DNA of 53,234 nucleotides, from the NCBI GenBank assembly GCA_947632715.1, contig CANRQF010000001.1:1-53234 (forward strand), written 5' to 3'. Positions 1,103 to 51,899 of the stretch are shown in pieces. The stretch comes from an uncultured Bacilli bacterium. Its GTDB lineage: Bacteria; Bacillota_I; Bacilli_A; RF39; UBA660. The stretch's first letter is position 1; the number at the start of each line of letters is the position of its first letter. The notes under the pieces are model-generated. The model was not told the DNA's origin. It did no database searches and saw only the letters and a list, made by a program, of their open reading frames with translations. Made by a program: the position numbers and the translations under genes.

Positions 1103-3483
1103 TAGTTCACACTTTCTAATCCTGCAACATCATTACCGATTTTTACAATATCATCAAGTGAAATAGAACCAGTATCTGAAACATCGCCTGCTAAAGCATA
1201 AACTCCATCTAAATCATTAACTCCATCTAAATGTTGCTTAGTCTTTACTAAATCTGTAATTGAAATATTACCATCACCACTGACATCACCCTTAACAACT
1301 ATATCTAAATCTAATAAAGAGTTATTATAACTATCAGTAACTCTTGCAATCATTCCTGTTCCCACATAATTAGATTGCAGAATAGTTCCGGTTTTATCAT
1401 ACACTTTAATTTTATTTTTAGAATCTAAACCAATATTACTAGCAAAGTTACTAATCTTAGTTTGATTTTTAACATTTTTAATTAAATCATTAAAATTATC
1501 AATAACATAATTTGTATTTTTAGGAAAATATGCCTTACTATCAACAAAATCAATATCGAAATATCCGGATGCAGAATCCAAACCATTATCATAAGAAAGT
1601 TCAAAATAAGCTGCTTTTATATTAGTTAAGTTTTTATTAATATGGACCATTGCATTTCCTTTATTTAGTTGTTTACCCGTAAATTCATAAGTTTCAACTA
1701 TATCTTCATAATTATTATTAAAATTAATAAATGAAGATTGAACTTTTACTTTATAAGTTTCATTATCTTTAAATCCTATTCCATTTATATATATTTTGAT
1801 AGGAAAGTTTCTAGTAGCAATATAATTATAATCATCCATTCTTAAATATAAATTCTTATTATTACCATTTGATAAACTAACATTAGCAAAAACAGGATAA
1901 TTTTGTAATCTTAAAGTTGGAGCACAATAATATATTAACTCATCATTATATTTTATTACTAAGCGATATTTTGGAATATTATAATTTTCATGATTATCAA
2001 CTTTAAATGTTAAACCATTGTGATTTAAATCACGACCATTTACTGAACCACTAGTAATTAAATTTGAGTTTAATGTATCACCATCATCATTAATATTATC
2101 ATAATACAATTCATATGTATAATTTAAGCTTTCATCAAAATCCCTGCCTAAATATCTTATATATATGTTTGAATACTTATTAAAAACATCTTTATTAGTT
2201 TCATAAGTACCACTTGAAAAATAAAAACCACCATCGCCCATAAAAACTGATAAATTCTTTTGACCATTTTCATAAAATAAATCTGAACTTATATTAACTT
2301 TTTTTTCAAAATAAGTATAATAATAATTTATATTTTTTTCTAACTCATTTATATTAATTTTTATAGTATATTTATCTTCATCAGTATATTTTTTTTCTGT
2401 TGAAGAGATGAAATCATCTAAATCTAAAGTATATTTATTATTTAAATCAAGACCATTTACATTAATTGTTTTTTGATAAACTTTATTATTTCCTCGCATT
2501 ATATTTAATGTAACATTATAGTCTTTATTCATAAAATTATTACCATCTATTACAACTGCTAGGGGATTATTTTCATTATGATATTTACTACTTACAACAT
2601 AATAATCTCCTGTAAAATAAATATTATTTGTAGGATTATTTTTATAAATAAGTGATGATTGATAATTAGGTATACTTTCATCATTTACCATATTTAAACT
2701 TACATTATATAATTTATCATTAGCTTTATATTTTAAATTAACATTATAATCATAAATATTAAATTTCATCGATAAAATTAAACGATCTAAGCCATTGATT
2801 GGAATTTCTAATAATACTCCCTTTTTTAATTCAGCACCAGAATAATTATAGGTATTGTTATTTATTAAAATTGGATAATTTATACTATCTTTTAAGTTTT
2901 CACCTTTTAATTTAAAAGTTATATTTTGTAAATTATTAACTTCAAAAACACAATTTTCATCTTCTAAAACTGGAGTAATAACCTCACCATTTTGATATAG
3001 TTCTTCTAATATTAAATTACTTATTGATGGATTAGTTTCATTATAAAAATTAACTTTTATCGTTAATTCTTGACTTGCAATTAAACGATATTCATCTTTA
3101 TTATTACTTTCCATAGGTTTTTCATATATATTATAAACAATATTATTAACAGCACTTTCTTTGTCTAATAAAAGAAACCAATCTTTACCATTATAAGTAT
3201 CTGTATATACACTACTTATAATATCTTCCGTAGTTCGTGAGCCATTAACAACTCTTTCTAAACAATAACTTTTACTATTATCATAATTTTTAATTGTATA
3301 ATTTACATATATTTTATTTATATCATTTATTTCATAAATTCCATCTTTTAATTCAATCTCTTTATCATTTTGAATAAGAGAATTAATTTCAAATATTTCC
3401 TCAGCATGTACTGTTGGAATCATAAATAAAAAATTATTTATAAAAAGACCAAAACATAAAATTATTTCTAAAACTTTTTTCAT
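1102..3483 (-). CDS. large secreted beta-rich protein with a C-terminal dockerin-like module
   Basis: Signal peptide ends ...PTVHAEE. The last 65 aa carry two EF-hand-like Ca loops, DVSGDGNISITD and DVSDTGSISLDD, typical of dockerin type I repeats. The stop overlaps the start of the downstream cohesin-like gene by 1 nt. Confidence 0.65.
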   Translation of the reverse strand: MKKVLEIILCFGLFINNFLFMIPTVHAEEIFEINSLIQNDKEIELKDGIYEINDINKIYVNYTIKNYDNSKSYCLERVVNGSRTTEDIISSVYTDTYNGKDWFLLLDKESAVNNIVYNIYEKPMESNNKDEYRLIASQELTIKVNFYNETNPSISNLILEELYQNGEVITPVLEDENCVFEVNNLQNITFKLKGENLKDSINYPILINNNTYNYSGAELKKGVLLEIPINGLDRLILSMKFNIYDYNVNLKYKANDKLYNVSLNMVNDESIPNYQSSLIYKNNPTNNIYFTGDYYVVSSKYHNENNPLAVVIDGNNFMNKDYNVTLNIMRGNNKVYQKTINVNGLDLNNKYTLDLDDFISSTEKKYTDEDKYTIKININELEKNINYYYTYFEKKVNISSDLFYENGQKNLSVFMGDGGFYFSSGTYETNKDVFNKYSNIYIRYLGRDFDESLNYTYELYYDNINDDGDTLNSNLITSGSVNGRDLNHNGLTFKVDNHENYNIPKYRLVIKYNDELIYYCAPTLRLQNYPVFANVSLSNGNNKNLYLRMDDYNYIATRNFPIKIYINGIGFKDNETYKVKVQSSFINFNNNYEDIVETYEFTGKQLNKGNAMVHINKNLTNIKAAYFELSYDNGLDSASGYFDIDFVDSKAYFPKNTNYVIDNFNDLIKNVKNQTKISNFASNIGLDSKNKIKVYDKTGTILQSNYVGTGMIARVTDSYNNSLLDLDIVVKGDVSGDGNISITDLVKTKQHLDGVNDLDGVYALAGDVSDTGSISLDDIVKIGNDVAGLESVN

Positions 3484-12164: not shown

Positions 12165-12563
12165 CTAATTTTTACTATTTTTTACTTCCTCTATCTCTTC
12201 AATTGGTACATTTGTTATTTTATGTATTTCTTCTATTTTCATATAGTTTAGTAAACTTTTTATAATTATTCTAGTTCCTTCTTTAACCCCTTCTTCTTTT
12301 CCAATTAAAATACCTTCTTCTTTTCCTTCTTCTTTACCAATTAAAATGCCTTCTTCTTTTCCTTCTTCTTTACCAATCAAAATTCCTTCCTTTTTACCAA
12401 TGTTTATTCCTCTTCTTTCTCCTTTTTCTCTTGCTATTCTCTCTCTTGCTTCTTGCATTAATTTATTTTCTTCTTCAATACTTATCATTCTCGTTATTGT
12501 TCCATCTTCATTATATCTAAACACTTTTTCTTTCACCTCTTCTATTAGTGATAATGTCAACAT
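12165..12563 (-). pseudogene. truncated duplicate of the 3' part of the Rpn-like gene, with an expanded in-frame repeat
   Basis: 12191-12547 is near-identical to 12658-12966, except for 48 extra nt of the EGILIGKE/EGKE-encoding repeat. It lacks the N-terminal nuclease domain. Confidence 0.6.
12191..12547. repeat. direct repeat copy 1 (357 nt) of the Rpn-like 3' segment
   Basis: Aligned by eye with 12658-12966. Confidence 0.85.
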
Positions 12564-12637: not shown

Positions 12638-13540
12638 TTAATTCTTTTTTATTTCTTCTATCTCTTCAATTGGTACATTTGTTATTTTATGTATTTCTTC
12701 TATTTTCATGTAGTTTAGTAAACTTTTTATAATTATTCTAGTTCCTTCTTTAACCCCTTCTTCTTTTCCAATTAAAATACCTTCTTCTTTACCAATCAAA
12801 ATTCCTTCCTTTTTACCAATGTTTATTCCTCTTCTTTCTCCTTTTTCTCTTGCTATTCTCTCTCTTGCTTCTTGCATTAATTTATTTTCTTCTTCGATAC
12901 TTATCATTCTTGTTATTGTTCCATCTTCATTATATCTAAACACTTTTTCTTTCACCTCCTCTATTATTTCATCATTCTTACTTAATTCTTCTAATTCTTC
13001 TTTATTTGCATCTAAGGCTACTATATATTTATCATTTCTTTTACTTTCCTTTCTTTTCCATTCTTCTTTATATTTTCTTATATTTACTGTAATTACTTTA
13101 AATCTTCTACTAAATAATTTCCCAGTTTTTTTGTATATTATATAACCTATATCTTTTTTGGGTGTATTCTTTCCACCATTATATACTAAATCTATTAATA
13201 TTTTTTCACTTACCATATACTCATTGTTTGTATACAACCCATATATTGTACAATAATAAATTAAATTTCTTTCTCTTATTATTTGATCATAATTACTATT
13301 TACTTCAATATCAATTATTTTATTATCTTTAGTTTTTACTAACAAATCTAATATATTATTTTTCTGATTCTTATATTCTTTTGGTAATTCTGTTCTTATA
13401 AATTCAATTACCTCTATCTTCTTTCCTAATATATTACTTAATATCTTATTTAGAAATCTTGTATCTTTGGGATTACCTACCACTTTTTTAAATACTGCAT
13501 CATACTTCAAATTATAAAATGTTTCCATCTTTGGTGCCAA
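12638..13540 (-). CDS. Rpn/YhgA-like PD-(D/E)XK recombination-promoting nuclease / putative transposase
   Basis: The N-terminus LKYDAVFKKVVGNPKDTRFLNKILSNILG...ILDLLVKTKDNKIIDIEVNS is typical of the PDDEXK_transposase-like family. Confidence 0.6.
   Translation of the reverse strand: MAPKMETFYNLKYDAVFKKVVGNPKDTRFLNKILSNILGKKIEVIEFIRTELPKEYKNQKNNILDLLVKTKDNKIIDIEVNSNYDQIIRERNLIYYCTIYGLYTNNEYMVSEKILIDLVYNGGKNTPKKDIGYIIYKKTGKLFSRRFKVITVNIRKYKEEWKRKESKRNDKYIVALDANKEELEELSKNDEIIEEVKEKVFRYNEDGTITRMISIEEENKLMQEARERIAREKGERRGINIGKKEGILIGKEEGILIGKEEGVKEGTRIIIKSLLNYMKIEEIHKITNVPIEEIEEIKKN
12658..12966. repeat. direct repeat copy 2 (309 nt)
   Basis: Aligned by eye with 12191-12547. Confidence 0.85.
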
Positions 13541-19344: not shown

Positions 19345-20949
19345 ATGGCTAAATATGTATTCGTAACTGGAGGGGTTGTTTCTGGTCTTGGTAAAGGTAT
19401 AACGGCATCATCTGTGGCACTATTATTAAAATCAAGGGGCTATAAAGTTTTCATGCAAAAATTTGATCCTTACTTTAATGTGGATCCTGGCACGATGAAT
19501 CCTATTCAACATGGAGAAGTATATGTAACTTATGATGGTTGTGAAACTGACTTAGATTTAGGTCACTATGAAAGATTTATTGATGAAGAACTTAATTATT
19601 CATCTAATATTACAAGTGGTAAAATTTATAAATCAGTAATTGAAAAAGAAAGAAAAGGAGATTATCTTGGCGCAACAGTACAAATGGTACCACATATCAC
19701 CAATGAAATAAAAAATAAAATTTATGAAGCTGCTGCATCTAGTAATGCTGATATTATTATTACGGAAATTGGTGGTACAGTTGGAGATATTGAATCTAAT
19801 TCTTTTATTGAAGCTCTAAGGCAAGTACAATATGAACTTGGTAAAAGTAATACTTTCTTTATTCATTGTACTTTAATACCATATATATTTGGTTCAGGTG
19901 AACTTAAAACTAAACCTACCCAAAATAGTGTTAAAGATTTAAGAAATATGGGAATATCACCAGATGCTTTAGTTTGTAGAGCCCCATTTGAAACTAGTCA
20001 AAATATTAAAAATAAACTATCTTTATTCTGTTCTATTCCTGTTAATAATATTATTGATTCAATTGATGTTAATAACATTTATCAAATTCCCCTTAATTAT
20101 TATAAACAACATATAGATGAAATTATTTTAAAACAATTTGAATTACCAGTAAAAAAAGCTAATTTGAAATATTGGGAAGATCTTGTAAATACAGTTGATA
20201 ATTTAAAAGATGAAATAGAAATTGCTCTAGTAGGAAAATATGTTGAATTACATGATGCTTATATTTCTGTTTCTGAAAGTTTAAAACATGCTGGTTATAA
20301 AGTAAATAAAAAAATTAATATTAACTGGATTAATTCTGAAGAATTAGAAAAAGAATCAGCTAATTTGAAAGAAATATTTAAAAATGTAAAAGGAATACTT
20401 GTTCCTGGTGGCTTTGGTGGAAGAGGTATTGAAGGTAAAATAAAAGCCATTACTTATGCAAGAGAAAATAAAATACCTTTTTTAGGTATATGTTTAGGTA
20501 TGCAACTAGCAGTTATTGAATTTGTCAGAAATGTTTGTCATTTAGAAGATGCTAATTCAACGGAATTTAATCCTACTTGTAAAAATCCCGTTATTGATTT
20601 AATGGCTGATCAAAAATCTATTATAAATATGGGTGGAACTTTAAGACTTGGTAATTATGAATGTACTCTTATTAAAAATACATTAGCATATAAAGACTAT
20701 AATACAGATATAATTTTAGAAAGACATAGACATCGTTATGAATTTAATAATGCTTATAAAGAAATATTAGAAAAAAATGGCTTAATAATTTCTGGAACTA
20801 ATACAAAAGCTAATTTAGTAGAAATAATTGAACTAGAAAATCATCCTCACTTTATTGCTTGTCAATTTCATCCAGAATTTAAAAGTAGACCAACACACCC
20901 TCATCCATTATTCTTAAGCTTTATTGAAGCAGCAAATAAAATTAAATAA
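19345..20949 (+). CDS. pyrG: CTP synthase
   Basis: Motifs GGVVSGLGKG and GICLGMQ. Full-length similarity to PyrG. Confidence 0.97.
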   Translation: MAKYVFVTGGVVSGLGKGITASSVALLLKSRGYKVFMQKFDPYFNVDPGTMNPIQHGEVYVTYDGCETDLDLGHYERFIDEELNYSSNITSGKIYKSVIEKERKGDYLGATVQMVPHITNEIKNKIYEAAASSNADIIITEIGGTVGDIESNSFIEALRQVQYELGKSNTFFIHCTLIPYIFGSGELKTKPTQNSVKDLRNMGISPDALVCRAPFETSQNIKNKLSLFCSIPVNNIIDSIDVNNIYQIPLNYYKQHIDEIILKQFELPVKKANLKYWEDLVNTVDNLKDEIEIALVGKYVELHDAYISVSESLKHAGYKVNKKININWINSEELEKESANLKEIFKNVKGILVPGGFGGRGIEGKIKAITYARENKIPFLGICLGMQLAVIEFVRNVCHLEDANSTEFNPTCKNPVIDLMADQKSIINMGGTLRLGNYECTLIKNTLAYKDYNTDIILERHRHRYEFNNAYKEILEKNGLIISGTNTKANLVEIIELENHPHFIACQFHPEFKSRPTHPHPLFLSFIEAANKIK

Positions 20950-20958
20950 ATAAAAAAA

Positions 20959-21005
20959 ACTATTGGTATAGCAGTATTACTTATAAAAGTCCAATAGTTT
21001 TTTTA
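20959..21005 (+). terminator. intrinsic terminator after pyrG
   Basis: ACTATTGG...CCAATAGT stem followed by TTTTTTT. Confidence 0.5.
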
Positions 21006-21184
21006 TCCTTACTTGTTTACAATTTTAATTCTAGATAGACTTCATCTACCAAAATTTTTAAGAACATAAACATAGTCGCGAACACATTCACTGCTACTAA
21101 TTATCTTTTATCACATTTATTAATATTTGTAAATATATTTTTTATTTTTTTTATAATTTTTACATTTTTTTACGTTTAAAAATT

Positions 21185-21209
21185 AAAAGAGATATTTCAT
21201 ATCCCTTTA
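21185..21209 (-). terminator. intrinsic terminator after Cys-rich protein P1, paralogous to the one at 26857-26885
   Basis: On the minus strand, GGGATAT-GAA-ATATCTC followed by TTTT. Confidence 0.55.
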
Positions 21210-21238
21210 ATATTTTTTATCATTATCAGTTATAATTT

Positions 21239-22534
21239 CTATTTTACTGACGAAAATGTTTTGTAACATAAAGCCCAACTACCACCTAGACCATCGGCTG
21301 CTCCACCTACTTCTCTAGTATATCCGGCAGCACATGTTCCTGCTACTGGTCCACATTCTTTATCACATGCATCTTGGGAAGTATATGTTTTAGATGTATC
21401 ATTTTGACATGTCCATATTGTAATTGTACCACCGCCTCCGGTACTATTACATTCACAAAGTACTTGTGTTCTACCATTTTGATAACAAACAGGTAAACTT
21501 GACATTGAACCATAACCACAATTATCAAAAACTACTTCTTTTTCTCCTTGTTGTTCCCAACCACCATTTTGACATATCCAATTGGATTTAATACAATAAC
21601 CATCTCCACCACCATAACCGCCACTTGTAGAATGGCAACCACTAGTTTGAGAAACTGATGACTCAATAGTACATGATCCTATTCCAGCGTCATTTTTTAC
21701 ATACCCATAATAAGTTCCTGATAAAGATATAGATGGATTTGAAGGATTTGTATATTTTGAATCATCTTGAGGGGTTATGTTGGTTGTTCCTACATACCAT
21801 TTTTCTGCATCGCTACTTTTATTAAATTTTACTGAAATTGAACCATTTGTATTTACTACTTCAAATGAACATTTTGGTATATTCTTTGTTTCAGGTTTAT
21901 CATATGTTATTGAATCATAATCACTAACTTGGAATTTACTATTTTTAACAAAAGCATAATATGTAAATACTCCTTTTGTATCAGGAATACTAAATGTACT
22001 ATTATCTAATTTTTTATTACTGGATTCTGTTGAAGTTAAATTAGTCCATGTACAACTTGAACTATTATTTGATGTTGTAACACAATATTGAGTAGCATTT
22101 TTCAAAGTCCATTTTAGATGATAGCCAACAACTGGATTTGTAGTTGTTGAACCTTTAAAACTACCTAGATTAAATGTTAAAGATGCTTTCAAAAAATATA
22201 AATTACAATATGTTGATTTATTAGTCTTTACTGATGCTTTTCTTGTACTTTCATTATAAGTTAATACACCAGTTAATTTATTTCCTTTTTTATCTACACA
22301 ATTTGAACTATCTTCATCAAATAAATAACCTTCTGGCCAAAAATTCTTTTCTTCATATAATCTATAGCCATCACCTTCATCAACATAAATAGAAAACATT
22401 TCACTATTAATACTCTCTACTTTTTCATAATTGGTTAATACTTTTCTATTACCATAAGACCTAATTAAAAAAGCAATGGCAAAGCCCTCTAATAATATAA
22501 CTACTACTAACAATACTTTTGCTATTTTTTTCAT
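21239..22534 (-). CDS. cysteine-rich N-terminally anchored modular surface protein (paralogue P1), function unknown
   Basis: N-terminal TM helix. Conserved blocks are shared with 26920..27978 and 27991..29187. The SD lies inside the end of the upstream ATP-grasp gene, with a 7-nt gap. Confidence 0.75.
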   Translation of the reverse strand: MKKIAKVLLVVVILLEGFAIAFLIRSYGNRKVLTNYEKVESINSEMFSIYVDEGDGYRLYEEKNFWPEGYLFDEDSSNCVDKKGNKLTGVLTYNESTRKASVKTNKSTYCNLYFLKASLTFNLGSFKGSTTTNPVVGYHLKWTLKNATQYCVTTSNNSSSCTWTNLTSTESSNKKLDNSTFSIPDTKGVFTYYAFVKNSKFQVSDYDSITYDKPETKNIPKCSFEVVNTNGSISVKFNKSSDAEKWYVGTTNITPQDDSKYTNPSNPSISLSGTYYGYVKNDAGIGSCTIESSVSQTSGCHSTSGGYGGGDGYCIKSNWICQNGGWEQQGEKEVVFDNCGYGSMSSLPVCYQNGRTQVLCECNSTGGGGTITIWTCQNDTSKTYTSQDACDKECGPVAGTCAAGYTREVGGAADGLGGSWALCYKTFSSVK

Positions 22535-22541
22535 TTTTCAC

Positions 22542-23747
22542 TCACTTCCAATAACTATTTTTATATTCTATATAATAATGTAACCATCTTTTTCTAAGCA
22601 TCAAATATCTTAGAAAATTACGATCACATTTTGCATCCATTGGTTTAATTACTTTTTCCCATAATTTGAATACTTCTTTTTTATAAGCTTCATTATTTAT
22701 ATATTTTTTTATTATACCTTTTGGAACAAAAGATAATAATACTTTTTCATTTAAATATCTAAATTCATGTTCTTCATGATTGATTAAATCATCCACTAAA
22801 GTTTTAACTAAATTTTTACCCAATGCTGTAATGTAGTAACTACATCTACCTTGTCTTGCATTAATTTCTAATACTTTAAAAGTATTATCTTTCTTATCAT
22901 ATTTCATATCAACTTCAGCAAAACCACGATAATTGATACTCTCTAAGAAATTTTTAATGGTATCTACTTGTTTTTGAACATCACCATTTGTTAAATTTAA
23001 GCCATTAATTAAGACAGCCGCATTACCAACCATTGTTGTTGTTCTTTCTTGTAGTCCAATTTGAGCAAAACTCATAAATTCAGCTTTACCTTTACTATTT
23101 ACATAGCAAACAGCATCAAATAAACAATCATCATCTCCTTCAATAAATTCTTGGATGATTAACTTATCATTATATCCACTACTATATATTATATCAATTT
23201 TTTCTTGTAATGTGTTAAAATTTTTAATTTTATATATTTTATTTTTGCCTGCAAATTCTAAATGGTTGTAATCTACCACATTTGCGGGCTTTAAAACGAT
23301 GGGGTAAGAAATTTCTTTTAAATCTACTTTACACTTTTTGTCATAATAAATTGTCTTTGGAAACTTTAAATTACTCTTTTCATACGTTTTATAAAATATT
23401 TCTTTATTAGTTAAACTTTTTAAAACTTTTAAATCTGGTAAATTAAATAAATAATTTTTAGCAAGTTCTTCTTTATTTTTACTAATAAATTCACTATAAG
23501 TTTCATTGGTACTAATAAGTAATATTTTTTCTTTTTTATCTTTAGCAAAATCTCTAAGTAATTTTAAAAATCCTTCTTCACTCCACATATCTTGATTGTA
23601 AGATACTTCTAAAATATTAGTATATTTAGTAAATGATAAAACTTTTGTACCAATAACATATGGCTTTATTTTATATTCTTCATAACAACATCTAGCCATA
23701 TAGTAAGCATTCGCATCAGTTCCTAAAATGAGTACTGGATTCTTCAT
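22542..23747 (-). CDS. ATP-grasp carboxylate-amine ligase, D-aspartate ligase (Aslfm)-like
   Basis: Motifs VLILGTDANAYYMARCCYEEY, LKPANVVDY, FAEVDMKYD..FKVLEINARQGRCSYY and a C-terminal RKRWLHYYIEY resemble the D-Asp ligase family as I remember it. Not checked by search. Confidence 0.65.
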   Translation of the reverse strand: MKNPVLILGTDANAYYMARCCYEEYKIKPYVIGTKVLSFTKYTNILEVSYNQDMWSEEGFLKLLRDFAKDKKEKILLISTNETYSEFISKNKEELAKNYLFNLPDLKVLKSLTNKEIFYKTYEKSNLKFPKTIYYDKKCKVDLKEISYPIVLKPANVVDYNHLEFAGKNKIYKIKNFNTLQEKIDIIYSSGYNDKLIIQEFIEGDDDCLFDAVCYVNSKGKAEFMSFAQIGLQERTTTMVGNAAVLINGLNLTNGDVQKQVDTIKNFLESINYRGFAEVDMKYDKKDNTFKVLEINARQGRCSYYITALGKNLVKTLVDDLINHEEHEFRYLNEKVLLSFVPKGIIKKYINNEAYKKEVFKLWEKVIKPMDAKCDRNFLRYLMLRKRWLHYYIEYKNSYWK

Positions 23748-23757
23748 ATTCTCTCCT

Positions 23758-24939
23758 TTAATATTTTATTTCACTTTTTTCATTATTTTCAATATGAACT
23801 CTTACAACCCGATTAGATATAGAACTATATAAATGATAAGCATTAGTACCTAAATTTTTACATACTTCTTCTTGCGATATAACACTGCCAAATATTTCTA
23901 CTTCATCATTTATTTTAACTGTATTATCTACTTCAACCATGATCATATCCATACAATCATTTAATATTTTATATTTCTTTTTATTAATGGAAACATTACC
24001 AAATTCTTTTGTAACTCCATCAGCATAACCAATAGGTATTGTTGCTACTAACATATCTTCTAAAGCTTTATATTTGGCATCATAACCCACTATTTCATCC
24101 TTTTTTACTTCTCTTATACTAATTACCTTAGAATATAGGGAAAATGCTGGTTTAACCTTTAAATCGTTCTCTAAATAAGTATTACTAATATTATATTTCT
24201 TTAAATAACTTTCTCTTTTCTTACATCTTAAATAATCTTGAAAACTAGTTGAATATTTTATAATTGAATTATAACCATACATTAAGATACCTAGTCTTAT
24301 TCCTGTTGTATACTTACATTTATCATGACGTATTAGAGTTAGGCTTCTTGCAAAGTGAATGATTGGAATACTACTTAAATCTAAATCACTTATTAATTCA
24401 TCTATTTTGTTAATTGCTTCATCATAATAAGGATCCATAAACCCAGAGGTTGCAAAATGGGTAAATAAACCTTCTAAAACCATATTATCTTTTTCTTGGA
24501 TTAATTTATATGTTTCATTAATATCTTCTTTATTTTGGAATCCTAATCGATTCATACCTGAATTAATTATCATATGTATTTTTAATTCTTTTTTATATTT
24601 TTTAGTTACTAATTCTTTTACGTAATCTAAATTCTCTACTGATATTGTAATATCATTTTTACAAGCAACTTCTACATCTTCTAAGTCAATTGGTTCTAAT
24701 ATAAGTATGGGAATATCTAAATAATATTTTCTTATTTCTAATGCTTCATCTAATGAAGATACTGCTAAATAATTTATACCTCCCTTTATTAAAGATGGTA
24801 TTATATGTATTCCATGATTATAAGCATTATTTTTAACTACCCCAATATAATATTTATAATCATTATACTTTTCTTTTATATTCTTAACATTTTGTTCTAA
24901 TATATCATTATTTATTAATGCATATGTTTTTCTATACAT
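23758..24939 (-). CDS. alr: alanine racemase-fold (fold-type III PLP) amino-acid racemase
   Basis: PLP-lysine motif VVKNNAYNHG. Also IPIGYADG and MDMIMVEV. Confidence 0.8.
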   Translation of the reverse strand: MYRKTYALINNDILEQNVKNIKEKYNDYKYYIGVVKNNAYNHGIHIIPSLIKGGINYLAVSSLDEALEIRKYYLDIPILILEPIDLEDVEVACKNDITISVENLDYVKELVTKKYKKELKIHMIINSGMNRLGFQNKEDINETYKLIQEKDNMVLEGLFTHFATSGFMDPYYDEAINKIDELISDLDLSSIPIIHFARSLTLIRHDKCKYTTGIRLGILMYGYNSIIKYSTSFQDYLRCKKRESYLKKYNISNTYLENDLKVKPAFSLYSKVISIREVKKDEIVGYDAKYKALEDMLVATIPIGYADGVTKEFGNVSINKKKYKILNDCMDMIMVEVDNTVKINDEVEIFGSVISQEEVCKNLGTNAYHLYSSISNRVVRVHIENNEKSEIKY

Positions 24940-24951
24940 AACTTGTCTCCT

Positions 24952-26778
24952 TTATACACTTTCATTTACAAAAAATATCTCATACCATTTCAAAAATGAA
25001 TATATAGCCCATACTTTTTTATATAGATATTTTTTAGTACTAGTACAACTATCAAGAAGTTTCACTATTTTTTTAGTATTAAAGAATTTATTTGCATAAT
25101 CACTTGTAAATACATTCTTTACTTCATCATAGAATGGACTTTCACATATCCAATTTCTAAGAGGTACCGGAAATCCTAACTTCTTTTTATTATATGCTTC
25201 CGTTGGTATAACTTCTTTTGCGGCTTCTCTCATCGCTAATTTCGTTTTATTTTTAGCTATCTTTTGTTCCATTTTTAAAGTTTTAGCTACTTCAAACACT
25301 TCTCTATCAACAAATGGTACTCTTACCTCTAAAGAGTTAGCCATACTCATGCAATCACCTTTATGAAGGATATCTGCTACTAACCAAAAATTAATATCAA
25401 TGGCTTGCATTTTATTTAAATTATTTTCATCTTCATTTTTATTAAATATCTCTTTAGTAATTTCTTTATTTTTTATTTTACCTTTACTAACTAATATTTT
25501 ATCTCTTTCTCTTTCACTAAATATCTTACTTATACCAACATAATCATCTTCTAATTTATATCCTCTTCTTACTAAGAAATTTCTACCTCTAAATTCAGGT
25601 GTTAATTCAAGTAATTTAGCAATACTATGTCTTATAAAATAAGGAATTTTATTATACCAAGATAAATCAACATTTTCTAAATAAGTATTATATCCCCCAA
25701 AGAACTCATCAGCACCTTCACCAGATAAGCACACTTTAACATCCCTACTAGCAATTAATGATAAGAAATACAATGATATTGCTGATGGATCACTAAATGG
25801 TTCATCCATATGATAAATAAGTTTTGGAACAACTTCTAAGTATTCCTCTTTACTAATTATTTTACTTTTATTTTCTATTCCCAATTTATTAGATAAATCT
25901 TCAGCATAACTAATTTCACTATATTCTAAATTATTATATCCTACAGTATAAGTCTTATTAGGTTTAGCAAGAGATACAATATATGAAGAATCTACTCCAC
26001 TTGATAGAAATGAACCAACTTCAACATCACTTATTTGATGATGAGTTACTGAATCTTCCATAACTTTAGCTATTTTACTAACTACTTCTTCTAAACTGTT
26101 ATCTTTTACTTCAAATTTTACATCATAATATTTTTGAATATTTATTTCATTATCTTTATATATTAAATAAGATCCAGCAGGTAATTTATATACTCCTTTA
26201 AAGAAAGTTTCATCTAAAGGATTAAAACTAAATGACAAATATAAAGGTAGAGCATCTGTATTTAATTCTTTTTCAAAATCAGGTTGTTCTAAGAATGCTT
26301 TAATTTCACTTGCAAACATAAAAGTATCATTAAATTTACCATAATAAAAAGGTTTAATACCAAAATGGTCTCTAGCGCAAAATAAAGTTTTATTTTTTTT
26401 ATCCCAAATAGCAAAAGCAAACATTCCTCTTAACTTAGAGGGAAGGCTACTTCCCCATTCTTCATATCCATGAACTAAAACTTCTGTATCCGTTGTGGTT
26501 GTAAATTTATGTTTATGTTTTTTTAATTCTTTAGTTAATTCTTCATAATTATATATTTCACCATTAAATATAACAATTACATCACTAGTTTCATTATATA
26601 TTGGTTGATGTCCTTTACTTAAATCAATTATAGAAAGACGACGATGACCTAAGGCTACATCATCATCAGTATAATAGCCATCATCATCCGGACCACGATG
26701 TTTAATTCGATCAGCCATCTTTTTAATTATTTTATCTTTTTTCTTTTCTTTATTTACAAATCCAACTATTCCACACAT
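24952..26778 (-). CDS. asnB: asparagine synthetase B-type glutamine amidotransferase
   Basis: MCGIVGF N-terminal nucleophile. PP-loop-like FLSSGVDSS. 608 aa. Confidence 0.88.
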   Translation of the reverse strand: MCGIVGFVNKEKKKDKIIKKMADRIKHRGPDDDGYYTDDDVALGHRRLSIIDLSKGHQPIYNETSDVIVIFNGEIYNYEELTKELKKHKHKFTTTTDTEVLVHGYEEWGSSLPSKLRGMFAFAIWDKKNKTLFCARDHFGIKPFYYGKFNDTFMFASEIKAFLEQPDFEKELNTDALPLYLSFSFNPLDETFFKGVYKLPAGSYLIYKDNEINIQKYYDVKFEVKDNSLEEVVSKIAKVMEDSVTHHQISDVEVGSFLSSGVDSSYIVSLAKPNKTYTVGYNNLEYSEISYAEDLSNKLGIENKSKIISKEEYLEVVPKLIYHMDEPFSDPSAISLYFLSLIASRDVKVCLSGEGADEFFGGYNTYLENVDLSWYNKIPYFIRHSIAKLLELTPEFRGRNFLVRRGYKLEDDYVGISKIFSERERDKILVSKGKIKNKEITKEIFNKNEDENNLNKMQAIDINFWLVADILHKGDCMSMANSLEVRVPFVDREVFEVAKTLKMEQKIAKNKTKLAMREAAKEVIPTEAYNKKKLGFPVPLRNWICESPFYDEVKNVFTSDYANKFFNTKKIVKLLDSCTSTKKYLYKKVWAIYSFLKWYEIFFVNESV

Positions 26779-26814
26779 TGTATGCCTACTTTCTTTATAT
26801 TGACTTCTACTTTA

Positions 26815-26843
26815 ATTTTAAATAATTAGTTAAATTAAGTCAA
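26815..26843 (-). promoter_or_regulatory. candidate sigma-A promoter of the asnB-alr-ATP-grasp-P1 operon
   Basis: On the minus strand, TTGACT-N17-TAAAAT, about 35 nt upstream of the asnB-like ATG. Confidence 0.4.
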
Positions 26844-26856
26844 TATTTTACTATTT

Positions 26857-26885
26857 AAAAAGAGATATTTTTCATATCCCTTTTA
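26857..26885 (-). terminator. intrinsic terminator after Cys-rich protein P2
   Basis: On the minus strand, GGGATAT-GAAAA-ATATCTC followed by TTTTT. Homologous to 21185-21209. Confidence 0.55.
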
Positions 26886-26919
26886 TAATATTTATTATAA
26901 TTAATTACAATTTTCTATA

Positions 26920-27978
26920 CTACTGAACTACTGATGAAAATGTTTTATAACATAATGCCTGACTATTAGCTTGTCCATCTGTTCCAACAACCAATCTAGT
27001 GTATCCTACATCACATGTTCCTGCTACTGGTTTACATACTGCATCACATGCTGATTGAGATGAATATGGTGTTCTTGTATCATATTGACAAGTCCATACT
27101 GTTGAACCAGCACTTGGTCCACCGGAAGATGAACAACTACATGTTTCATAATCGGTTCTTTGACTAGTACCTCCAGCGGTATTACAACTTCCTGAACAGT
27201 TAGAAGTAGTTGAATGCCCCGAACAACTATATACTTGTGAACTACTAGTTATTGTTGCACTCATAGTTCCATTAACACAACTACAATATCCTTCATATAA
27301 AGTACAAGTAGAACCAGAATCTCCACCGCTACTACTTCCACCGGCAGTTGCAGAATGACATCCGCTTGTTTGAGAAATTTTTGTTTCTATAGTACATGAT
27401 GCTATTCCCACACTATTTTTTACATACCCATATAATGTAGAAAAACTAAATGTAGTTGTTTCTGTATTATTATATTGTGAATCAATTTGAGGAGTTATTC
27501 CACTTGTCCCTACATACCATTTTTTTGCATTATCACTTTTATTAAATGTTATTGAAATTGAACCATTTGTATTTGATACGCTAAATGAACATGTTGGTAG
27601 TGTTTCTGTTATTGGTAAATCAAAATATAAATAACAATAAGTTGTTTGTTTTGTATTTGTTACATATGCTTTATTTTCACTTTTTTCAAATGTTAATACT
27701 CCACTTACTATTTCTCCTTTTTCATTTATGCATGATGATTTACTTTGATTAAAATTATATCCTGATGGCCATGTTGTTGAACTGGAATATTCTTGGTATT
27801 CTCCACTACCTTCTTTAGTTTCTACCATTATCGCAAATGAACCATCTTTCTTTATTTCTTTTAATTCTACATTATCAAGTACTATTTCTTTATTTGTACT
27901 TGATTTATACATGAAGTATGTTGCTACTATCTCTATTACTATTAACATTATTATTAATATACTCTTATTCTTTTTCAT
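26920..27978 (-). CDS. cysteine-rich N-terminally anchored modular surface protein (paralogue P2), function unknown
   Basis: N-terminal TM helix. Shared blocks WPSGYNF..C..YCYLYF, PTCSFSVSNTNGSISITFNKSDNAKKWYVGT, GYVKNSVGIASC and WTCQYD...LCYKTFSSV. Confidence 0.75.
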   Translation of the reverse strand: MKKNKSILIIMLIVIEIVATYFMYKSSTNKEIVLDNVELKEIKKDGSFAIMVETKEGSGEYQEYSSSTTWPSGYNFNQSKSSCINEKGEIVSGVLTFEKSENKAYVTNTKQTTYCYLYFDLPITETLPTCSFSVSNTNGSISITFNKSDNAKKWYVGTSGITPQIDSQYNNTETTTFSFSTLYGYVKNSVGIASCTIETKISQTSGCHSATAGGSSSGGDSGSTCTLYEGYCSCVNGTMSATITSSSQVYSCSGHSTTSNCSGSCNTAGGTSQRTDYETCSCSSSGGPSAGSTVWTCQYDTRTPYSSQSACDAVCKPVAGTCDVGYTRLVVGTDGQANSQALCYKTFSSVVQ

Positions 27979-27990
27979 AAATTAATCCCC

Positions 27991-29187
27991 TTAACTCATT
28001 TTATAACAATATAATGGGTAACCACCTGGATTAGATGCTGTATATCCATCTTTACAACTACTTGCTTTACAATTGTTAGTACAGTCATCTTGAGAACTAT
28101 ATTCTTTTTGGTCTAGTGAACATTGATATGTTGCTCCGCTTCCTCCCCCACATGTACATCCATATATAGCTTGAGCACCAACACTATAATCTTGGCAACC
28201 ACCATATATTGTTTCTTTTGGACATGATGAACCAGATCCTAAACTATGTACTTCAACGTATTTATCACCTTGTTTAGTACATGTTGAAATATTCCAACTA
28301 CAATTAGCTGCGCTACCTTGCGAAACTTGTGAACATCCTGGAGCCTCTGCATACATATCTGCTTTACATTTTCCAATTCCTGAACTATTCTTTACATATC
28401 CATATAATGTACTTGGTGGAAATGTTAATGTTGTTGGATTATCATAATTTGAATCTACATTTTGATCTGCTATATCTTTAGTTCCTACATACCACCTATC
28501 TGCATTATCACTTTTTGTAAATGTTACTCCTCCTCTGCTATCTGCAGTAAATGTACATGTTGGTGCTGAATTTATTATTGTTATTATATCGCTTGCACTT
28601 GCCATTATTCCTGATGCATTTCTTACATAAAAATAATATGTTTGTTGACCTGTTGTTGTAAAAGTATAACTACTTGAATAACTTGTTACACTTGATGATA
28701 AACTTTGCCAACTGCATCCGCTTGGATTTGATGATTGTGTGATACAATATTGGGTTGCATTTGGTAAGGTCCATGATGCATTCCATGTTGTTCCTGACAA
28801 TGGAGCTGTTTCACTTGCAAAACTAAATGTTGCTGTATAATTTGCTTTATCCATATATAATGTACAATATACTGTTCTTGTACTTGTTACTGTTACACTT
28901 CCATTATTCATGGAAAATGATGGTGTTACTTTTTCTCCAAATTGATCTTCACATTTTGTCATACTTGTGTTGATTTGATATGTTCCTGTTGGAAATGTAT
29001 TTCCAGATTGTTCAGCATAACTTCCATTATCTTGTTGCACATAAAAAGTTAAATAATTATTATGTTTTTCTTTTTTCTTTATTTCTTCTACTTCTGTACC
29101 CATATATGTTTTATATGTTTTTATACCTATAAAACAACATATCAAAAGCAAAATGAGTACAAACATCCTTTTTTGTACTTTTTTCAT
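27991..29187 (-). CDS. cysteine-rich N-terminally anchored modular surface protein (paralogue P3), function unknown
   Basis: N-terminal TM helix. Same block order as P1, including the extra NATQYC(V/I)T module. More divergent C-terminal Cys-rich domain ending LYCYKMS. Confidence 0.75.
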   Translation of the reverse strand: MKKVQKRMFVLILLLICCFIGIKTYKTYMGTEVEEIKKKEKHNNYLTFYVQQDNGSYAEQSGNTFPTGTYQINTSMTKCEDQFGEKVTPSFSMNNGSVTVTSTRTVYCTLYMDKANYTATFSFASETAPLSGTTWNASWTLPNATQYCITQSSNPSGCSWQSLSSSVTSYSSSYTFTTTGQQTYYFYVRNASGIMASASDIITIINSAPTCTFTADSRGGVTFTKSDNADRWYVGTKDIADQNVDSNYDNPTTLTFPPSTLYGYVKNSSGIGKCKADMYAEAPGCSQVSQGSAANCSWNISTCTKQGDKYVEVHSLGSGSSCPKETIYGGCQDYSVGAQAIYGCTCGGGSGATYQCSLDQKEYSSQDDCTNNCKASSCKDGYTASNPGGYPLYCYKMS

Positions 29188-29212
29188 AACTTAACCTACC
29201 TATCATAATTTA

Positions 29213-29241
29213 ATTATAATTAGTAACAATTAAAAAGTCAA
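29213..29241 (-). promoter_or_regulatory. candidate sigma-A promoter of the P3-P2 operon
   Basis: On the minus strand, TTGACT-N17-TATAAT, about 25 nt upstream of the P3 ATG. Confidence 0.45.
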
Positions 29242-29243
29242 CT

Positions 29244-29268
29244 AAAAAAAGTTCATTCAAAATGAACT
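29244..29268 (-). terminator. intrinsic terminator after the phosphatase-like gene
   Basis: Stem GTTCATT/AATGAAC followed on the minus strand by TTTTTTT. Confidence 0.5.
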
Positions 29269-29269
29269 C

Positions 29270-29863
29270 TTAAATTCTTTTAATAGAAATATTTTCTTGC
29301 ATATTTATTTCATAAATATCATAATCAGTATCACTATCATCATATATTACTTCATTATTAAATTCTAATATTAAATTATCATCTAAATTATAATCTACTT
29401 TAGCATATTTAAGTAAAAATCCTAAAATAGCTCGACGATGAGTGAATAAAACAATATTATCTTCTTTTATATCTTTGATAAAAGTATCTATTCTATTACC
29501 AACTTCAATTAAAGATTCCCCATTAGGTAATTTATATCTAAAATCATGTTCTTGTAAACCTTTAACCATTTTCATATTTTTGTTACCTAATAGTCCAACT
29601 TGACAATCATTTAAATTCATATTCATTTTAATTTTTAATTCTAACTTTTGTTGTAAATATTTAGCAGTTTGTAAAGCACTACTATAAAAAGAAGAATATA
29701 TACCATTTATATTTTGAAATATTGGTAATTCACTAATTATTTTAGCATTTTCTTCTCCCTTGATACTAAGAGGTCTAACCATTCTTATAAGTTCTAAATT
29801 AGAAGTATTACTATAATTAATATCCTCTAATAATGAATTATTACTAACTAAATAAATTTTCAT
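29270..29863 (-). CDS. histidine phosphatase superfamily-like protein with a non-canonical N-terminal motif
   Basis: PLSIKGEENAKII and LFTHRRAILGFL resemble the PGM/His-phosphatase fold. The RHG catalytic motif position reads VSNN. Confidence 0.4.
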   Translation of the reverse strand: MKIYLVSNNSLLEDINYSNTSNLELIRMVRPLSIKGEENAKIISELPIFQNINGIYSSFYSSALQTAKYLQQKLELKIKMNMNLNDCQVGLLGNKNMKMVKGLQEHDFRYKLPNGESLIEVGNRIDTFIKDIKEDNIVLFTHRRAILGFLLKYAKVDYNLDDNLILEFNNEVIYDDSDTDYDIYEINMQENISIKRI

Positions 29864-45121: not shown

Positions 45122-46774
45122 CTACTTAAATAAATCTTTTATTATGATTTCTGAATTATCATAAAATTCATCATATTCTTCATCATTTTTAACTTCTGCT
45201 AACATATAAATATTATCATTATATTGCATATATATTTTACTATTCATCATATTTATATGTAATCCTAAAGTATCTTTTTTATATTCATCATGATCCATAT
45301 ATAATTCCATATTTTTAACTAAATTTTCTTTAGTATCATATTTTAAATACTCATATGGAATATAATCATATATTTTATCTGTTAATATATCTTGTAATTT
45401 AACTTCTTTATTATTAGAAATAAGTTCATATGTAAATTCATTCTTACTTAACTTTTCATCAATAAAATCATAACCATCAAAATCTGTTATACTATAAGCT
45501 CCCTCTGATGCATCAAATCTTTTATAACTATTTAAATATATATCTTTACGATATTTATTATAATCACTTTTACTAAGTTCATAATTGTAGTTATTACAAG
45601 CAAAATAATAATATTCTTTTGGATATAAATAATATGTTTCACAGCTTACTTTATAAACACTATTTTCTTTTCTATTCTTTTTCAAATTATCTACTATATT
45701 ATCTGTATATTCTTTAGCATTATCAGTATAAGAAGTTATAGAAATATCATAAATAGTATTATCTATTTCTTTAAAATATTGACAATTATCATATTCACAT
45801 TCGGATAAATAAGTATAATCATCAAATTCATTAAATTTTCTTTCTATTTCTTTTGATTTATTAACAAATATATTATTATTATTTTTAAATTTATCATATA
45901 TTATTAAATTATCAACCATATCTATATAATTTAAAGTAAGTCTATAATTTTTATCATATTTTTCTTTTAAATAATAAGTTTCATATTCTCCCCTTATTAA
46001 CTCACAATCTTTATTATTTTGACATTCTTTATCATAATCATCAATAATTAAAGGATTATAAACATATACATTATTAAAATATAAATTTAAAGTAGCATTT
46101 CTAAATGAGAATAAATAATCATTTTTATTAAATGAATTCATAACTGATAAAGTACTATCTTCAACTTTACTATAATCTTTATTTATATTACAATCATAAC
46201 AATAATTATAAGTATCTCCTAAAGTGAAATAGATATTATCTTCTGTTTCTTTATAAACTAATTCTTTTAATTTATCTATATCATTTATAACATCTTCAAT
46301 AGTTATACTACTTCCTGTATTTAAATCAATATTTAATGTATCTAATACTAATCCATCATAATATATTAAAGCATCTTCATAATTATCAATATCTTCATCT
46401 ATTAAAATAAATTCAATTGATAAAGTATTTTCAAATCCTAAGTAATTAGATGTAAATAATGTATGTTTATTTAAATCTACTTCTTTACTTAATTTTTCTA
46501 TTTTACTTTTTACCTCTTCATTTATTTTCTCTTCTATTTTTTTATCCTTTAAACCATTTATACTTATATAATAAATATTTTTATTATTATTTAAATTATG
46601 TACTTCATAAGTTAAAGGATTTTCTAAATAGGATTTAGTTATATCAACTAAATATTTTTGATTATTTACTTTTTTAATTTCATCATTATTATTTGTTACA
46701 TAATAGTATAATTCAAATCCTATAATACCTAATAATATTATAATAATTAAACTTAAAAATGCCTTCTTTTTCAT
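45122..46774 (-). CDS. hypothetical N-terminally anchored Y/N/D-rich extracytoplasmic protein
   Basis: Long ORF with a single N-terminal TM helix. ISINGLKDKKIEEKINEEVK weakly recalls DUF4163/RsiV-like domains. Confidence 0.5.
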   Translation of the reverse strand: MKKKAFLSLIIIILLGIIGFELYYYVTNNNDEIKKVNNQKYLVDITKSYLENPLTYEVHNLNNNKNIYYISINGLKDKKIEEKINEEVKSKIEKLSKEVDLNKHTLFTSNYLGFENTLSIEFILIDEDIDNYEDALIYYDGLVLDTLNIDLNTGSSITIEDVINDIDKLKELVYKETEDNIYFTLGDTYNYCYDCNINKDYSKVEDSTLSVMNSFNKNDYLFSFRNATLNLYFNNVYVYNPLIIDDYDKECQNNKDCELIRGEYETYYLKEKYDKNYRLTLNYIDMVDNLIIYDKFKNNNNIFVNKSKEIERKFNEFDDYTYLSECEYDNCQYFKEIDNTIYDISITSYTDNAKEYTDNIVDNLKKNRKENSVYKVSCETYYLYPKEYYYFACNNYNYELSKSDYNKYRKDIYLNSYKRFDASEGAYSITDFDGYDFIDEKLSKNEFTYELISNNKEVKLQDILTDKIYDYIPYEYLKYDTKENLVKNMELYMDHDEYKKDTLGLHINMMNSKIYMQYNDNIYMLAEVKNDEEYDEFYDNSEIIIKDLFK

Positions 46775-51464: not shown

Positions 51465-51899
51465 ATGGAAAAATTAAGAAATTTACGGGAAGATGCCGAA
51501 CTAACTCAAGAAGATATTGCCAATATCTTAGGAATTCATAGGTCTACGTATACCTCCTATGAAATAGAAAGAGATACTATGCCCATAAATCACTTAAATA
51601 CATTATGTAATTATTTTAACGTATCGATTGATTATGTTTTAGGTTTTAATACTAAAATGCAATATCCCCATAATAGAAAAAATATTGATAAAAAATTACT
51701 AACGTCAAGACTTAAGGACTTTCGTAAAAATAATCATTTAACACAAAAACAAATTGCGGAAATATTTAAAATATCAAGAAGTACTTGGACCGGTTATGAA
51801 TATGGTCATTATCAAATACCTACTCTAATTCTTTTTACAATTGCTAAAGATTATCATGTAAGTATTGATTATTTATTAGGAAAAATAGACGAATATTAA
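51465..51899 (+). CDS. XRE-family regulator with two tandem HTH domains
   Basis: Two HTH_3-like units: LTQEDIANILGIHRSTYTSYE and LTQKQIAEIFKISRSTWTGYE. Confidence 0.75.
   Translation: MEKLRNLREDAELTQEDIANILGIHRSTYTSYEIERDTMPINHLNTLCNYFNVSIDYVLGFNTKMQYPHNRKNIDKKLLTSRLKDFRKNNHLTQKQIAEIFKISRSTWTGYEYGHYQIPTLILFTIAKDYHVSIDYLLGKIDEY

Follow-up and report, generated by a model that had tools for sequence, protein, structure and literature searches.

The window analysed here, a 53,234 nt stretch of contig CANRQF010000001.1 (assembly GCA_947632715.1) from an uncultured member of the Bacilli (GTDB lineage RF39; UBA660), contains three intact open reading frames (ORFs) on its minus strand that encode paralogous, N-terminally anchored, cysteine-rich modular proteins: P1 (21239-22534, 431 aa), P2 (26920-27978, 352 aa) and P3 (27991-29187, 398 aa). 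All three start with the same module of around 115 residues, termed the N-module, which defines a very large and unnamed protein family, and end in a cysteine-rich head that diverges rapidly between copies. The chances appear a little better than even that P1-P3 are variable, surface-displayed adhesin- or receptor-like proteins built upon this new anchor module. The positions and lengths of the ORFs match exactly those in an original prediction made from the letters of this DNA alone, and each of the motifs that it quoted was found in the translations, in the same order of five blocks (a to e); its description of the proteins as paralogous, anchored, modular and cysteine-rich is likewise supported by end-to-end alignment, by the shared modules and by a cysteine content of 4.2-5.1%.

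Across full-length alignments P1 is 48% identical to P2 and 35% identical to P3. The similarity of the three sequences is, on this comparison, far beyond chance, because even the parts downstream of the N-module match one another with tblastn scores of 162, 104 and 80 bits (E values of 2e-47, 2e-27 and 9e-20). P3 is of a 'long' type and is composed of a transmembrane (TM) helix (aa 7-24, nt 29116-29169), the beta domain of the N-module (aa 45-113, nt 28849-29055), an Ig (immunoglobulin)-like module c (aa 114-205, nt 28573-28848), an Ig-like module d (aa 208-277, nt 28357-28566) and a shorter variant of the cysteine-rich head e (aa 278-398, nt 27994-28356). P2 is of a 'short' type without module c: a TM helix containing Glu16 (aa 6-26, nt 27901-27963) and a beta domain (aa 46-120, nt 27619-27843) are followed by module d (aa 127-198, nt 27385-27600) and head e (aa 199-352, nt 26923-27384). 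P1 is a long protein with a P2-like head, having a TM helix with Glu16 (aa 5-26, nt 22457-22522), a beta domain (aa 45-115, nt 22190-22402), module c (aa 116-214, nt 21893-22189), module d bracketed by C222 and C288 (aa 219-291, nt 21662-21880) and head e (aa 292-431, nt 21242-21661). Hence the extra two-cysteine module c is present in P1 and P3, but not in P2.

The N-module consists of a short basic tail, the TM helix, a conserved linker and a beta domain of around 70 residues with two cysteines. An exhaustive HMMER search with a profile of seven full-length members recovered 1,136 representative clusters at E <= 1e-3, 587 of them at E <= 1e-10; the N-module was found in 142 of the best 150 of these 1,136 clusters, and was mostly the sole part to be matched. 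The proteins that it heads range, among the best matches, from 113 to more than 1,000 aa. A profile of 55 N-modules, A4, matches P2, P1 and P3 over positions 1-118 (E values of 5.3e-40, 4.1e-33 and 7.7e-33), whilst no other ORF in the window matched convincingly. These scores are partly circular, as P1-P3 are included in A4; evidence independent of them comes from the seven-member full-length profile, by which the wider family was recovered. P1-P3 also have the characteristics by which the family is defined: a TM helix and a domain of around 70 aa with two invariant cysteines, a W/F-P motif, conserved Tyr, Asn and Gly residues and a closing Y-C-x-L-Y-F. Amongst 144 non-redundant members, both cysteines are present in all 144 and the proline and the tyrosine in 140 each; within the closing C-x-L-Y-F, Tyr and Phe are each found in 139. 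A glutamate lies in the middle of the membrane helix in 93 of the 144, including P1 and P2; P3-type proteins have a cysteine at this position.

An AlphaFold2 (AF2) model of the N-module (P2 residues 1-120, with the alignment of 55 members) had a mean confidence (pLDDT) of 85.9, with a helix at residues 2-28 and a beta domain at residues 48-119; the linker between the two was of low confidence, though conserved in sequence. Foldseek found no counterpart of this model in the PDB (best E value 1.6) or in BFVD, a sequence profile search of the PDB with the N-module returned nothing significant, and no Pfam or NCBIfam model covers the N-module in any of 52 family members scanned. In P1-P3 themselves Pfam returned nothing above noise even at E <= 1, NCBIfam nothing at E <= 0.1 and PHROGs nothing. 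No source examined gives any family member a name beyond 'hypothetical protein', and a search of the literature found no described family with these properties. The homology and fold searches that the original prediction had called for therefore revealed no confident match to a characterised family, and its remark that no family could be named holds in so far as no curated family covers P1-P3; they are not an isolated trio, however, as the N-module defines a very large unnamed family. In other members the N-module is followed by Big_13 domains, an OmpL47-type barrel, leucine-rich repeat (LRR)/internalin domains, Lcl_C and similar domains of adhesin type.

The census that had also been proposed, a scan of GTDB species representatives, located 59 loci, all in metagenome-assembled genomes (MAGs) of 'uncultured Bacilli' (one being labelled 'Clostridia') from rabbit and Hadza guts. 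Family genes are often found two or three in tandem, with about 14 copies in one Hadza MAG. Several contigs start inside the N-module, the gene starting at contig position 1-3 (L008:1-893, L016, L025, L028, L035 and L049; L numbers denote individual loci). This is expected if assemblies break at the repeated, near-identical constant region, and suggests that copy numbers in MAGs are probably underestimated. In three further loci (L014:3-2002, L031:5956-7923 and L033:778-2788) an ORF of around 145-165 aa comprising only the N-module precedes a protein of around 490-520 aa with a weak FGE-sulfatase-like domain, which could be either a split gene or a two-protein arrangement. Searches of other collections were less productive. 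A word-indexed search of 5.8 billion proteins added no more than four full-length relatives, which came from a single ENA sample; similar searches with N-module and head profiles found almost nothing, the head search missing even its own query proteins, and are uninformative rather than negative evidence. Viral contigs in IMG/VR contained no relatives of the family, and a phage origin was rejected on this ground, together with the lack of a BFVD fold match to the N-module and of a PHROG match to P1-P3.

Behind the anchor, module c appears on sequence grounds to be a widespread Ig-like repeat close to Big_13. Large proteins with LRRs but no N-module contain four to seven copies of it (up to 19-21 matched stretches), and of 84 repeat copies 83 retain both cysteines. 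Two of these repeats overlap Big_13 matches with marginal scores (P0017, residues 667-750, 27.8 bits; P0135, residues 389-472, 21.2 bits; the cut-off being 27), whilst in P1-P3 themselves Big_13 gave no Pfam match even at E <= 1. Module d is a related sandwich bracketed by cysteines, closing with YGYVKN..G where module c has YY.FVKN, and a small number of other family members also carry it. As modelled at full length by AF2 (pLDDT 70.5; about 90 for module d), P1 is a string of beta sandwiches, which Foldseek matched in the PDB only to generic tandem Ig-domain adhesion molecules, and weakly (best E value 1.4e-3, none at E <= 0.001). Head e, among the sequences compared, is confined to a narrow clade. 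It is Gly/Ser/Cys-rich with 12-14 cysteines and has at its end an invariant mini-domain, C-x3-C ... C ... C; the last 55 or so residues hold five invariant cysteines, including the C-x3-C, which lies inside the sole predicted helix. A sequence profile search of the PDB with the head found nothing significant, and no relatives of the terminal mini-domain emerged when JGI metagenome contigs were scanned.

The abundance of cysteine, four to five times that of the other window proteins, sets P1-P3 apart from the rest of the window, where it makes up 0.96% of the other 43 ORFs; other proteins with N-terminal hydrophobic segments mostly have between none and two, with one having eight. Exported proteins of Firmicutes usually avoid cysteine. 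The original prediction had made its reading contingent on the cysteine pattern being conserved, and this pattern is kept in every relative. Across the nine members of the clade, 12 cysteine columns are retained in every protein that has the column, ten of them in all nine relatives: two lie in the N-module, two in module c (in the five proteins that have it), two in module d, one at the start of the head and five at the C-terminal end. Full disulfide pairing predicts an even number of extracytoplasmic cysteines, and each of the eight complete proteins has such a number (18, 18, 18, 18, 16, 12, 18 and 16), with 20 in the truncated ninth if its missing first N-module cysteine is assumed; P3 has 18 predicted to be extracytoplasmic and another two within the TM helix. 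It is therefore likely, judging from these sequences, that the extracytoplasmic cysteines are disulfide-bonded.

Evidence as to how these genes diversify came from a sister genome, represented by three contigs of equal, roughly 31x coverage in ENA sample ERZ27249050. This has three pairs of a long and a short gene, in three unrelated loci. For some 570 nt from the start, the three long genes show 100% identity, and beyond that point 42-49%; in the three short genes full identity extends for some 280 nt and then gives way to about 50-80%. P3 has 98-100% nucleotide identity to the long genes of the sister genome across the N-module, with almost no synonymous differences, whilst the heads are only 39-52% identical. 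The head is the fastest-diverging part of P1-P3-type proteins. The best explanation of such a mosaic of constant anchor and variable head would seem to be that copies recombine or undergo gene conversion with one another. Within positions 20900-29400 the only repeats are paralogous segments of 75-81% identity, none being near-identical, and no reverse transcriptase was found by Pfam among the window ORFs scanned; the possibility that these are targets of a diversity-generating retroelement, or an invertible element, was accordingly discarded, there being neither a reverse transcriptase nor a near-identical template repeat.

The basic MKK... tail, the hydrophobic helix of around 20 residues, some of them conserved in position, the lack of an A-x-A cleavage motif and the Ig-like, cysteine-paired domains together suggest that P1-P3 are single-pass, type II signal-anchored proteins with the N terminus inside the cell and the bulk outside. 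None has an LPXTG motif: the C termini (...LCYKTFSSVK, ...LCYKTFSSVVQ and ...YCYKMS) have no hydrophobic segment. Nor is there a lipobox, as P1 and P2 have no cysteine in the N-terminal 70 residues and the L-I-C-C of P3 lies in the helix without a Gly, Ala or Ser at -1. In the model that we propose, the N-module would hold the protein in the membrane and form a common membrane-proximal base, whose buried glutamate and conserved linker may join copies to one another or to a partner. Next would come a stalk of one or two Ig-like sandwiches, with a cysteine pair bracketing each, and then the cysteine-knotted head as a variable, exposed tip. Recombination or gene conversion would place different heads upon the same constant 5' anchor, P3 and P2 would be co-expressed as a long and short pair that might cooperate, and the role of the whole would be the surface display of a variable tip for binding or recognition.

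An adhesin-like role is the best supported because of the adhesin-type passengers found elsewhere in the family. In this respect the suggestion of a surface adhesin or receptor in the original prediction fits the Big_13, LRR/internalin, OmpL47-type and Lcl_C domains of the wider family, whereas its alternative of a spore-surface structure is possible but weak. A more ambitious version, possible but distinctly doubtful, is that the N-module is a new device for sorting, anchoring or assembly at the envelope, which would replace the lipobox, LPXTG signal or pilin leader of other bacteria and mark over a thousand variable surface proteins in this uncultured lineage; the constancy of its DNA would serve as a recombination handle through which disulfide-knotted heads are swapped between loci and strains, giving antigenic or ligand variation, and some copies, being wired into sigE-sigG and sigF-spoVA loci, could be displayed on the developing spore.

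Several observations weigh against the surface adhesin or receptor interpretation. The proposed role derives from the architecture and from domains of other family members, not of P1-P3 themselves. Nine disulfides would have to form by oxidative folding outside the cell of an anaerobic gut Firmicute, and the window revealed no thiol-disulfide oxidoreductase. An identical P1 protein is found on contigs of at least five other assemblies, giving no sign of rapid switching. The overall dN/dS, crudely estimated, is high (0.57-1.0), which could mean relaxed constraint rather than diversifying selection, dS being unreliable when the GC content of third codon positions (GC3) is 0.10. Finally, some family genes are located in core sporulation loci, which would fit another role.

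The window is very AT-rich, at about 24% GC, and the impression given in the original prediction that P1-P3 are more GC-rich than their surroundings is correct (0.30-0.34 against about 0.24). However, GC3 in P1-P3 is 0.10-0.11, the same as in neighbouring genes, and the entire excess is carried by codon position 2 (0.45-0.51, compared with 0.21-0.34 in the neighbours). The raised GC content is therefore a consequence of an amino acid composition rich in Ser, Thr, Gly, Cys and Ala, and not of foreign DNA; the suggestion that it might reflect Gly, Cys, Ala and Thr content is thus borne out, and horizontal transfer is ruled out as its source. Codon bias across the window ORFs is extreme, with a GC3 of about 0.10 and 210 AGA per 10,000 codons, as against 12 AGG and 3 CGG. 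Reassignment of AGG to methionine and of CGG to tryptophan has been described for some clades of Bacilli, within GTDB order RFN20 (PMC8629427). There is no sign of such an alternative code in the window: AGG and CGG are rare, AGA is dominant and the ORFs are intact under translation table 11.

Each of P1-P3 is preceded by a purine-rich ribosome binding site (RBS), that of P2 being AAGGGGA. Upstream of P3, on the same strand, lies a promoter-like site resembling the sigma-70 consensus (29213-29241; TTGACT and TATAAT separated by 17 nt, an 11/12 match), then an RBS, AGGTAGG, and the ATG; the gene upstream of P3 ends in a terminator-like hairpin at about 29243-29276 on the minus strand (-8.6 kcal/mol, z -2.6). 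P2 begins 12 nt past the stop codon of P3 and is followed at 26852-26885 (minus strand) by a terminator-like hairpin and T-run (-10.1 kcal/mol, z -4.1, equalled by none of 200 shuffled sequences). A second sigma-70-like site (26815-26843, minus strand; TTGACT and TAAAAT separated by 17 nt, a 10/12 match) would start a unit comprising asnB, alr, an ATP-grasp gene and P1, which begins just 7 nt past the stop codon of the ATP-grasp gene. The 3' flank of P1 (21180-21238, minus strand) also contains a terminator-like hairpin (-7.5 kcal/mol, z -2.6) and is homologous to that of P2; over 54 nt the two flanks (21185-21238 and 26860-26913) are 80% identical, hairpin included, and therefore the duplication behind the P1 and P2 heads took the downstream terminator along with it. 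As promoter-like sites across the region are no commoner than expected by chance, these are plausible signals and not proof. They nevertheless point to two likely transcription units, P3-P2 and asnB-alr-ATP-grasp-P1, such that P3 and P2 probably form a unit of their own and only P1 is likely to be operonic with asnB-alr-ATP-grasp. P1-P3 are real genes, on the basis of the RBSs, the promoter-like and terminator-like signals and the recurrence of P1, and of near-identical relatives of P3, in other assemblies and samples.

The operon that lies between P2 and P1 (22542-26778, minus strand) is outside the family. It encodes an AsnB-type amidotransferase (24952-26778; NCBIfam TIGR01536, E value 1.9e-153), an alanine racemase (23758-24939; TIGR00492, 1.3e-75, above the cut-off) and an uncharacterised ATP-grasp ligase (22542-23747) with weak matches only. 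The best NCBIfam match of this ligase reached 48.6 bits where the cut-off is 218, and it weakly matched an archaeal pseudomurein ATP-grasp model. Whilst 'envelope tailoring' appears a reasonable label for the operon from these assignments, the association of the family with it that the original prediction drew is not conserved, and a functional tie is unsupported: the pairs of the sister genome are in three unrelated loci, and neither Asn_synthase nor Ala_racemase is among the top 25 Pfam families of neighbouring genes. The notion that an ATP-grasp and an AsnB-like enzyme act on P1-P3 as cysteine-rich precursors of ribosomally synthesised and post-translationally modified peptides, as in graspetides, was set aside, since P1-P3 are TM proteins of 350-430 aa that contain folded Ig domains, and their linkage to these enzymes lacks conservation. 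The window also encodes PyrG, EzrA, PrkC/PASTA, a sulfatase-family protein resembling LtaS and a GerM homologue (52218-53150), which mark the organism, on gene content, as a walled spore-former.

In other genomes, 147 genes lie within two positions of family genes, and the commonest Pfam domains amongst these are HTH_3 (10), Sigma70 (9), STAS (4) and PRC (3), with SpoVAD, SpoIIGA, GerQ and SpoVAC found twice each. The gene order ftsZ-spoIIGA-sigE-[family]-sigG is present in two different MAGs (L019:2223-8834 and L027:2507-6876), and in the sister genome a pair of P3-like and P2-like genes is directly upstream of sigG (L007:871-3875). In Bacillus subtilis, sigE and sigG are adjacent. A compact spoIIAA-sigF-spoVAC/AD/AE block has a gene with an N-module just upstream or downstream of it in six loci (L009, L026, L031, L037, L053 and L059), and family genes adjoin gerQ in two. 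No obvious ORF of the size of spoIIAB lies between spoIIAA and sigF in such blocks, of which L037:3008-7485 is an example. A 144 aa Xre-type regulator with a double helix-turn-helix is encoded in the window at 51465-51899 on the plus strand, 22 kb from P1-P3 and beside the GerM homologue; its homologues are found divergently oriented just upstream of family genes in L017, L036, L046 and L061. Elsewhere on the minus strand of the window are two ORFs with no Pfam or NCBIfam match, one of 550 aa with an N-terminal TM helix and eight cysteines (45122-46774) and one of 793 aa (1102-3483), as well as an ORF of the PD-(D/E)XK_2 transposase family with a TTG start (12638-13540) that, together with a homologous fragment (12165-12563), is perhaps left over from a mobile element.

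Such positions raise an alternative, which we consider unlikely, that these are sporulation-linked envelope proteins, residing in the forespore or mother-cell membranes and facing the intermembrane space or cortex, or at the spore surface, with heads cross-linked as in coats. The organism does sporulate by the evidence of the GerM homologue and of sigG, a SpoIVB-type peptidase and GerQ in the sister genome; family genes lie between sigE and sigG, pair up upstream of sigG, flank spoIIAA-sigF-spoVA blocks and adjoin gerQ; Sigma70 domains are encoded by nine of the 147 neighbours; and cysteine-rich, cross-linked proteins are typical of spore outer layers. However, the nine sigma factor neighbours represent about three independent syntenic positions, and the members found at these sites vary from 143 to 823 aa, so that they look like insertion hot-spots or inherited synteny and not one conserved sporulation gene. 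Sporulation neighbours are not enriched, at about 24% of loci compared with about 34% expected on a rough estimate that takes around 10% of genes as sporulation genes and two genes on either side. Furthermore, signal or TM segments are absent from classical coat and exosporium proteins, the P3 promoter-like site is near the sigma-70 consensus, and other family members have LRR, Ig and Lcl_C passengers of the sort typical of external adhesins; the association with sporulation loci is therefore a lead and not a finding. The adjacent operon suggests a further alternative, that P1-P3 are its partners or substrates, being either scaffolds for modification of peptidoglycan or teichoic acid or proteins that it modifies. 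P1 is separated from the ATP-grasp gene by so few nucleotides that the two, sharing one terminator-like hairpin, are probably co-transcribed, P3-P2 are immediately upstream, and the same arrangement is seen in a conspecific contig, L002. Yet this is improbable given that the sister pairs are in MurJ/GerQ, sigG and PTAC/AddAB contexts, that Asn_synthase and Ala_racemase fall outside the 25 most recurrent neighbour families even though the lowest count listed there is two, that P3-P2 have promoter-like and terminator-like signals of their own, and that the duplicated 3' flank suggests P1 arrived by duplication.

A mosaic of constant 5' and variable 3' sequence also resembles CdiA, Rhs and LXG genes, and small cysteine-rich domains with a C-x3-C helix occur in defensin-like peptides; P1-P3 could on this basis be polymorphic toxin- or bacteriocin-like effectors, with an N terminus for trafficking and exchangeable toxic heads. 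This is very improbable, since Pfam and NCBIfam searches of P1-P3 and the genes immediately beside them detected no domain of a toxin, immunity protein or secretion system, no small immunity-like ORFs follow the heads (P3 is followed by P2, and P2 and P1 by hairpins), the conserved TM helix argues for retention in the membrane of the producer and the passengers of the wider family are of adhesin type. Least probable of all, to the point of being nearly negligible, is that they are pilin- or pseudopilin-like fibre subunits. The basic tail, the hydrophobic helix with its glutamate and the small two-cysteine beta domain give a superficial resemblance, and a T2SSE-type ATPase is encoded about 6 kb from one pair in the sister genome, but a Gly at -1 and the G|F..E5 motif are both missing, the glutamate being around ten residues into the helix, present in 93 of 144 members and absent from P3. 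The modelled helix (residues 2-28) is kept apart from the beta domain by a disordered linker, the search of the PDB that gave a best E value of 1.6 included no pilin, and no prepilin peptidase or assembly genes were detected by Pfam among the window ORFs scanned; the pilin-like reading is thus largely refuted by motif, model and fold search.

Comparison with known systems places the adhesin- or receptor-like interpretation in context. Modular Gram positive adhesins, such as internalins and Big-domain or MSCRAMM-type proteins, likewise carry a string of Ig-like sandwiches with a distal binding domain outside the cell, and other N-module proteins bear LRR/internalin, Big_13 and OmpL47-type domains. 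They differ in having a cleavable signal peptide and a C-terminal LPXTG, GW, LysM, SLH or CWB2 element, whereas the predicted anchor of P1-P3 is an N-terminal TM helix with a new two-cysteine domain; the 18 extracytoplasmic cysteines also contrast with the usual avoidance of this residue in exported Firmicute proteins. With the Vlp, Vsa and Vsp proteins of Mycoplasma they share multiple copies, a conserved N-terminal export and anchor region, hypervariable C-terminal parts, tandem genes and recombination between copies; unlike these, P1-P3 have no lipobox or acylation site, their variable part is made of folded domains and not short tandem repeats, and the window showed neither an invertible promoter nor a site-specific recombinase. 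Polymorphic toxins (CdiA-CT, Rhs and LXG) similarly have a constant N terminus, divergent C-terminal cassettes and a break in nucleotide identity at a defined point, but also toxin or immunity domains and dedicated secretion genes that were not found here, and P1-P3 are probably retained in the membrane. Type IV pilins and pseudopilins have in common a basic N terminus, a hydrophobic helix with a glutamate and a small globular domain with one cysteine pair, yet their class III signal motif and helix packed on the sheet are absent from P1-P3, for which there was neither a structural match nor assembly genes. The spore outer-layer proteins CotY/ExsY and CdeC are also rich in cysteine and come from spore-formers, and some N-module genes lie in sporulation loci; they are, however, synthesised in the mother-cell cytoplasm without TM or signal segments, and showed no similarity to P1-P3 in Pfam or NCBIfam. 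In their working P1-P3 come closest to the modular Gram positive adhesins, and in population genetics to variable surface lipoprotein families or polymorphic toxin cassettes. They would appear to be modular surface proteins of a familiar kind, carried on an undescribed but widespread anchor module and topped by an undescribed cysteine-rich head.

The N-module is well conserved, is modelled confidently by AF2 and has no counterpart in Pfam, NCBIfam or the PDB, and could thus be defined as a new domain family. The abrupt fall from 100% to roughly 40-50% nucleotide identity between paralogues provides a testable case of cassette-like diversification, and the 18 extracytoplasmic, probably paired cysteines invite one to ask by what means proteins of this sort are folded in an anaerobe. 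The finding would matter more if the N-module is a distinct sorting or assembly device, or if the association with sporulation loci is functional. The lineage comprises spore-forming, uncultured Bacilli of very low GC content from rabbit and human (Hadza) guts, the surface biology of which is uncharacterised. With up to about 14 copies per genome, the family is probably among the main sets of exposed proteins in these bacteria, and hence offers an entry point to their attachment to host or particles, their phage receptors and their variation at the level of strains.

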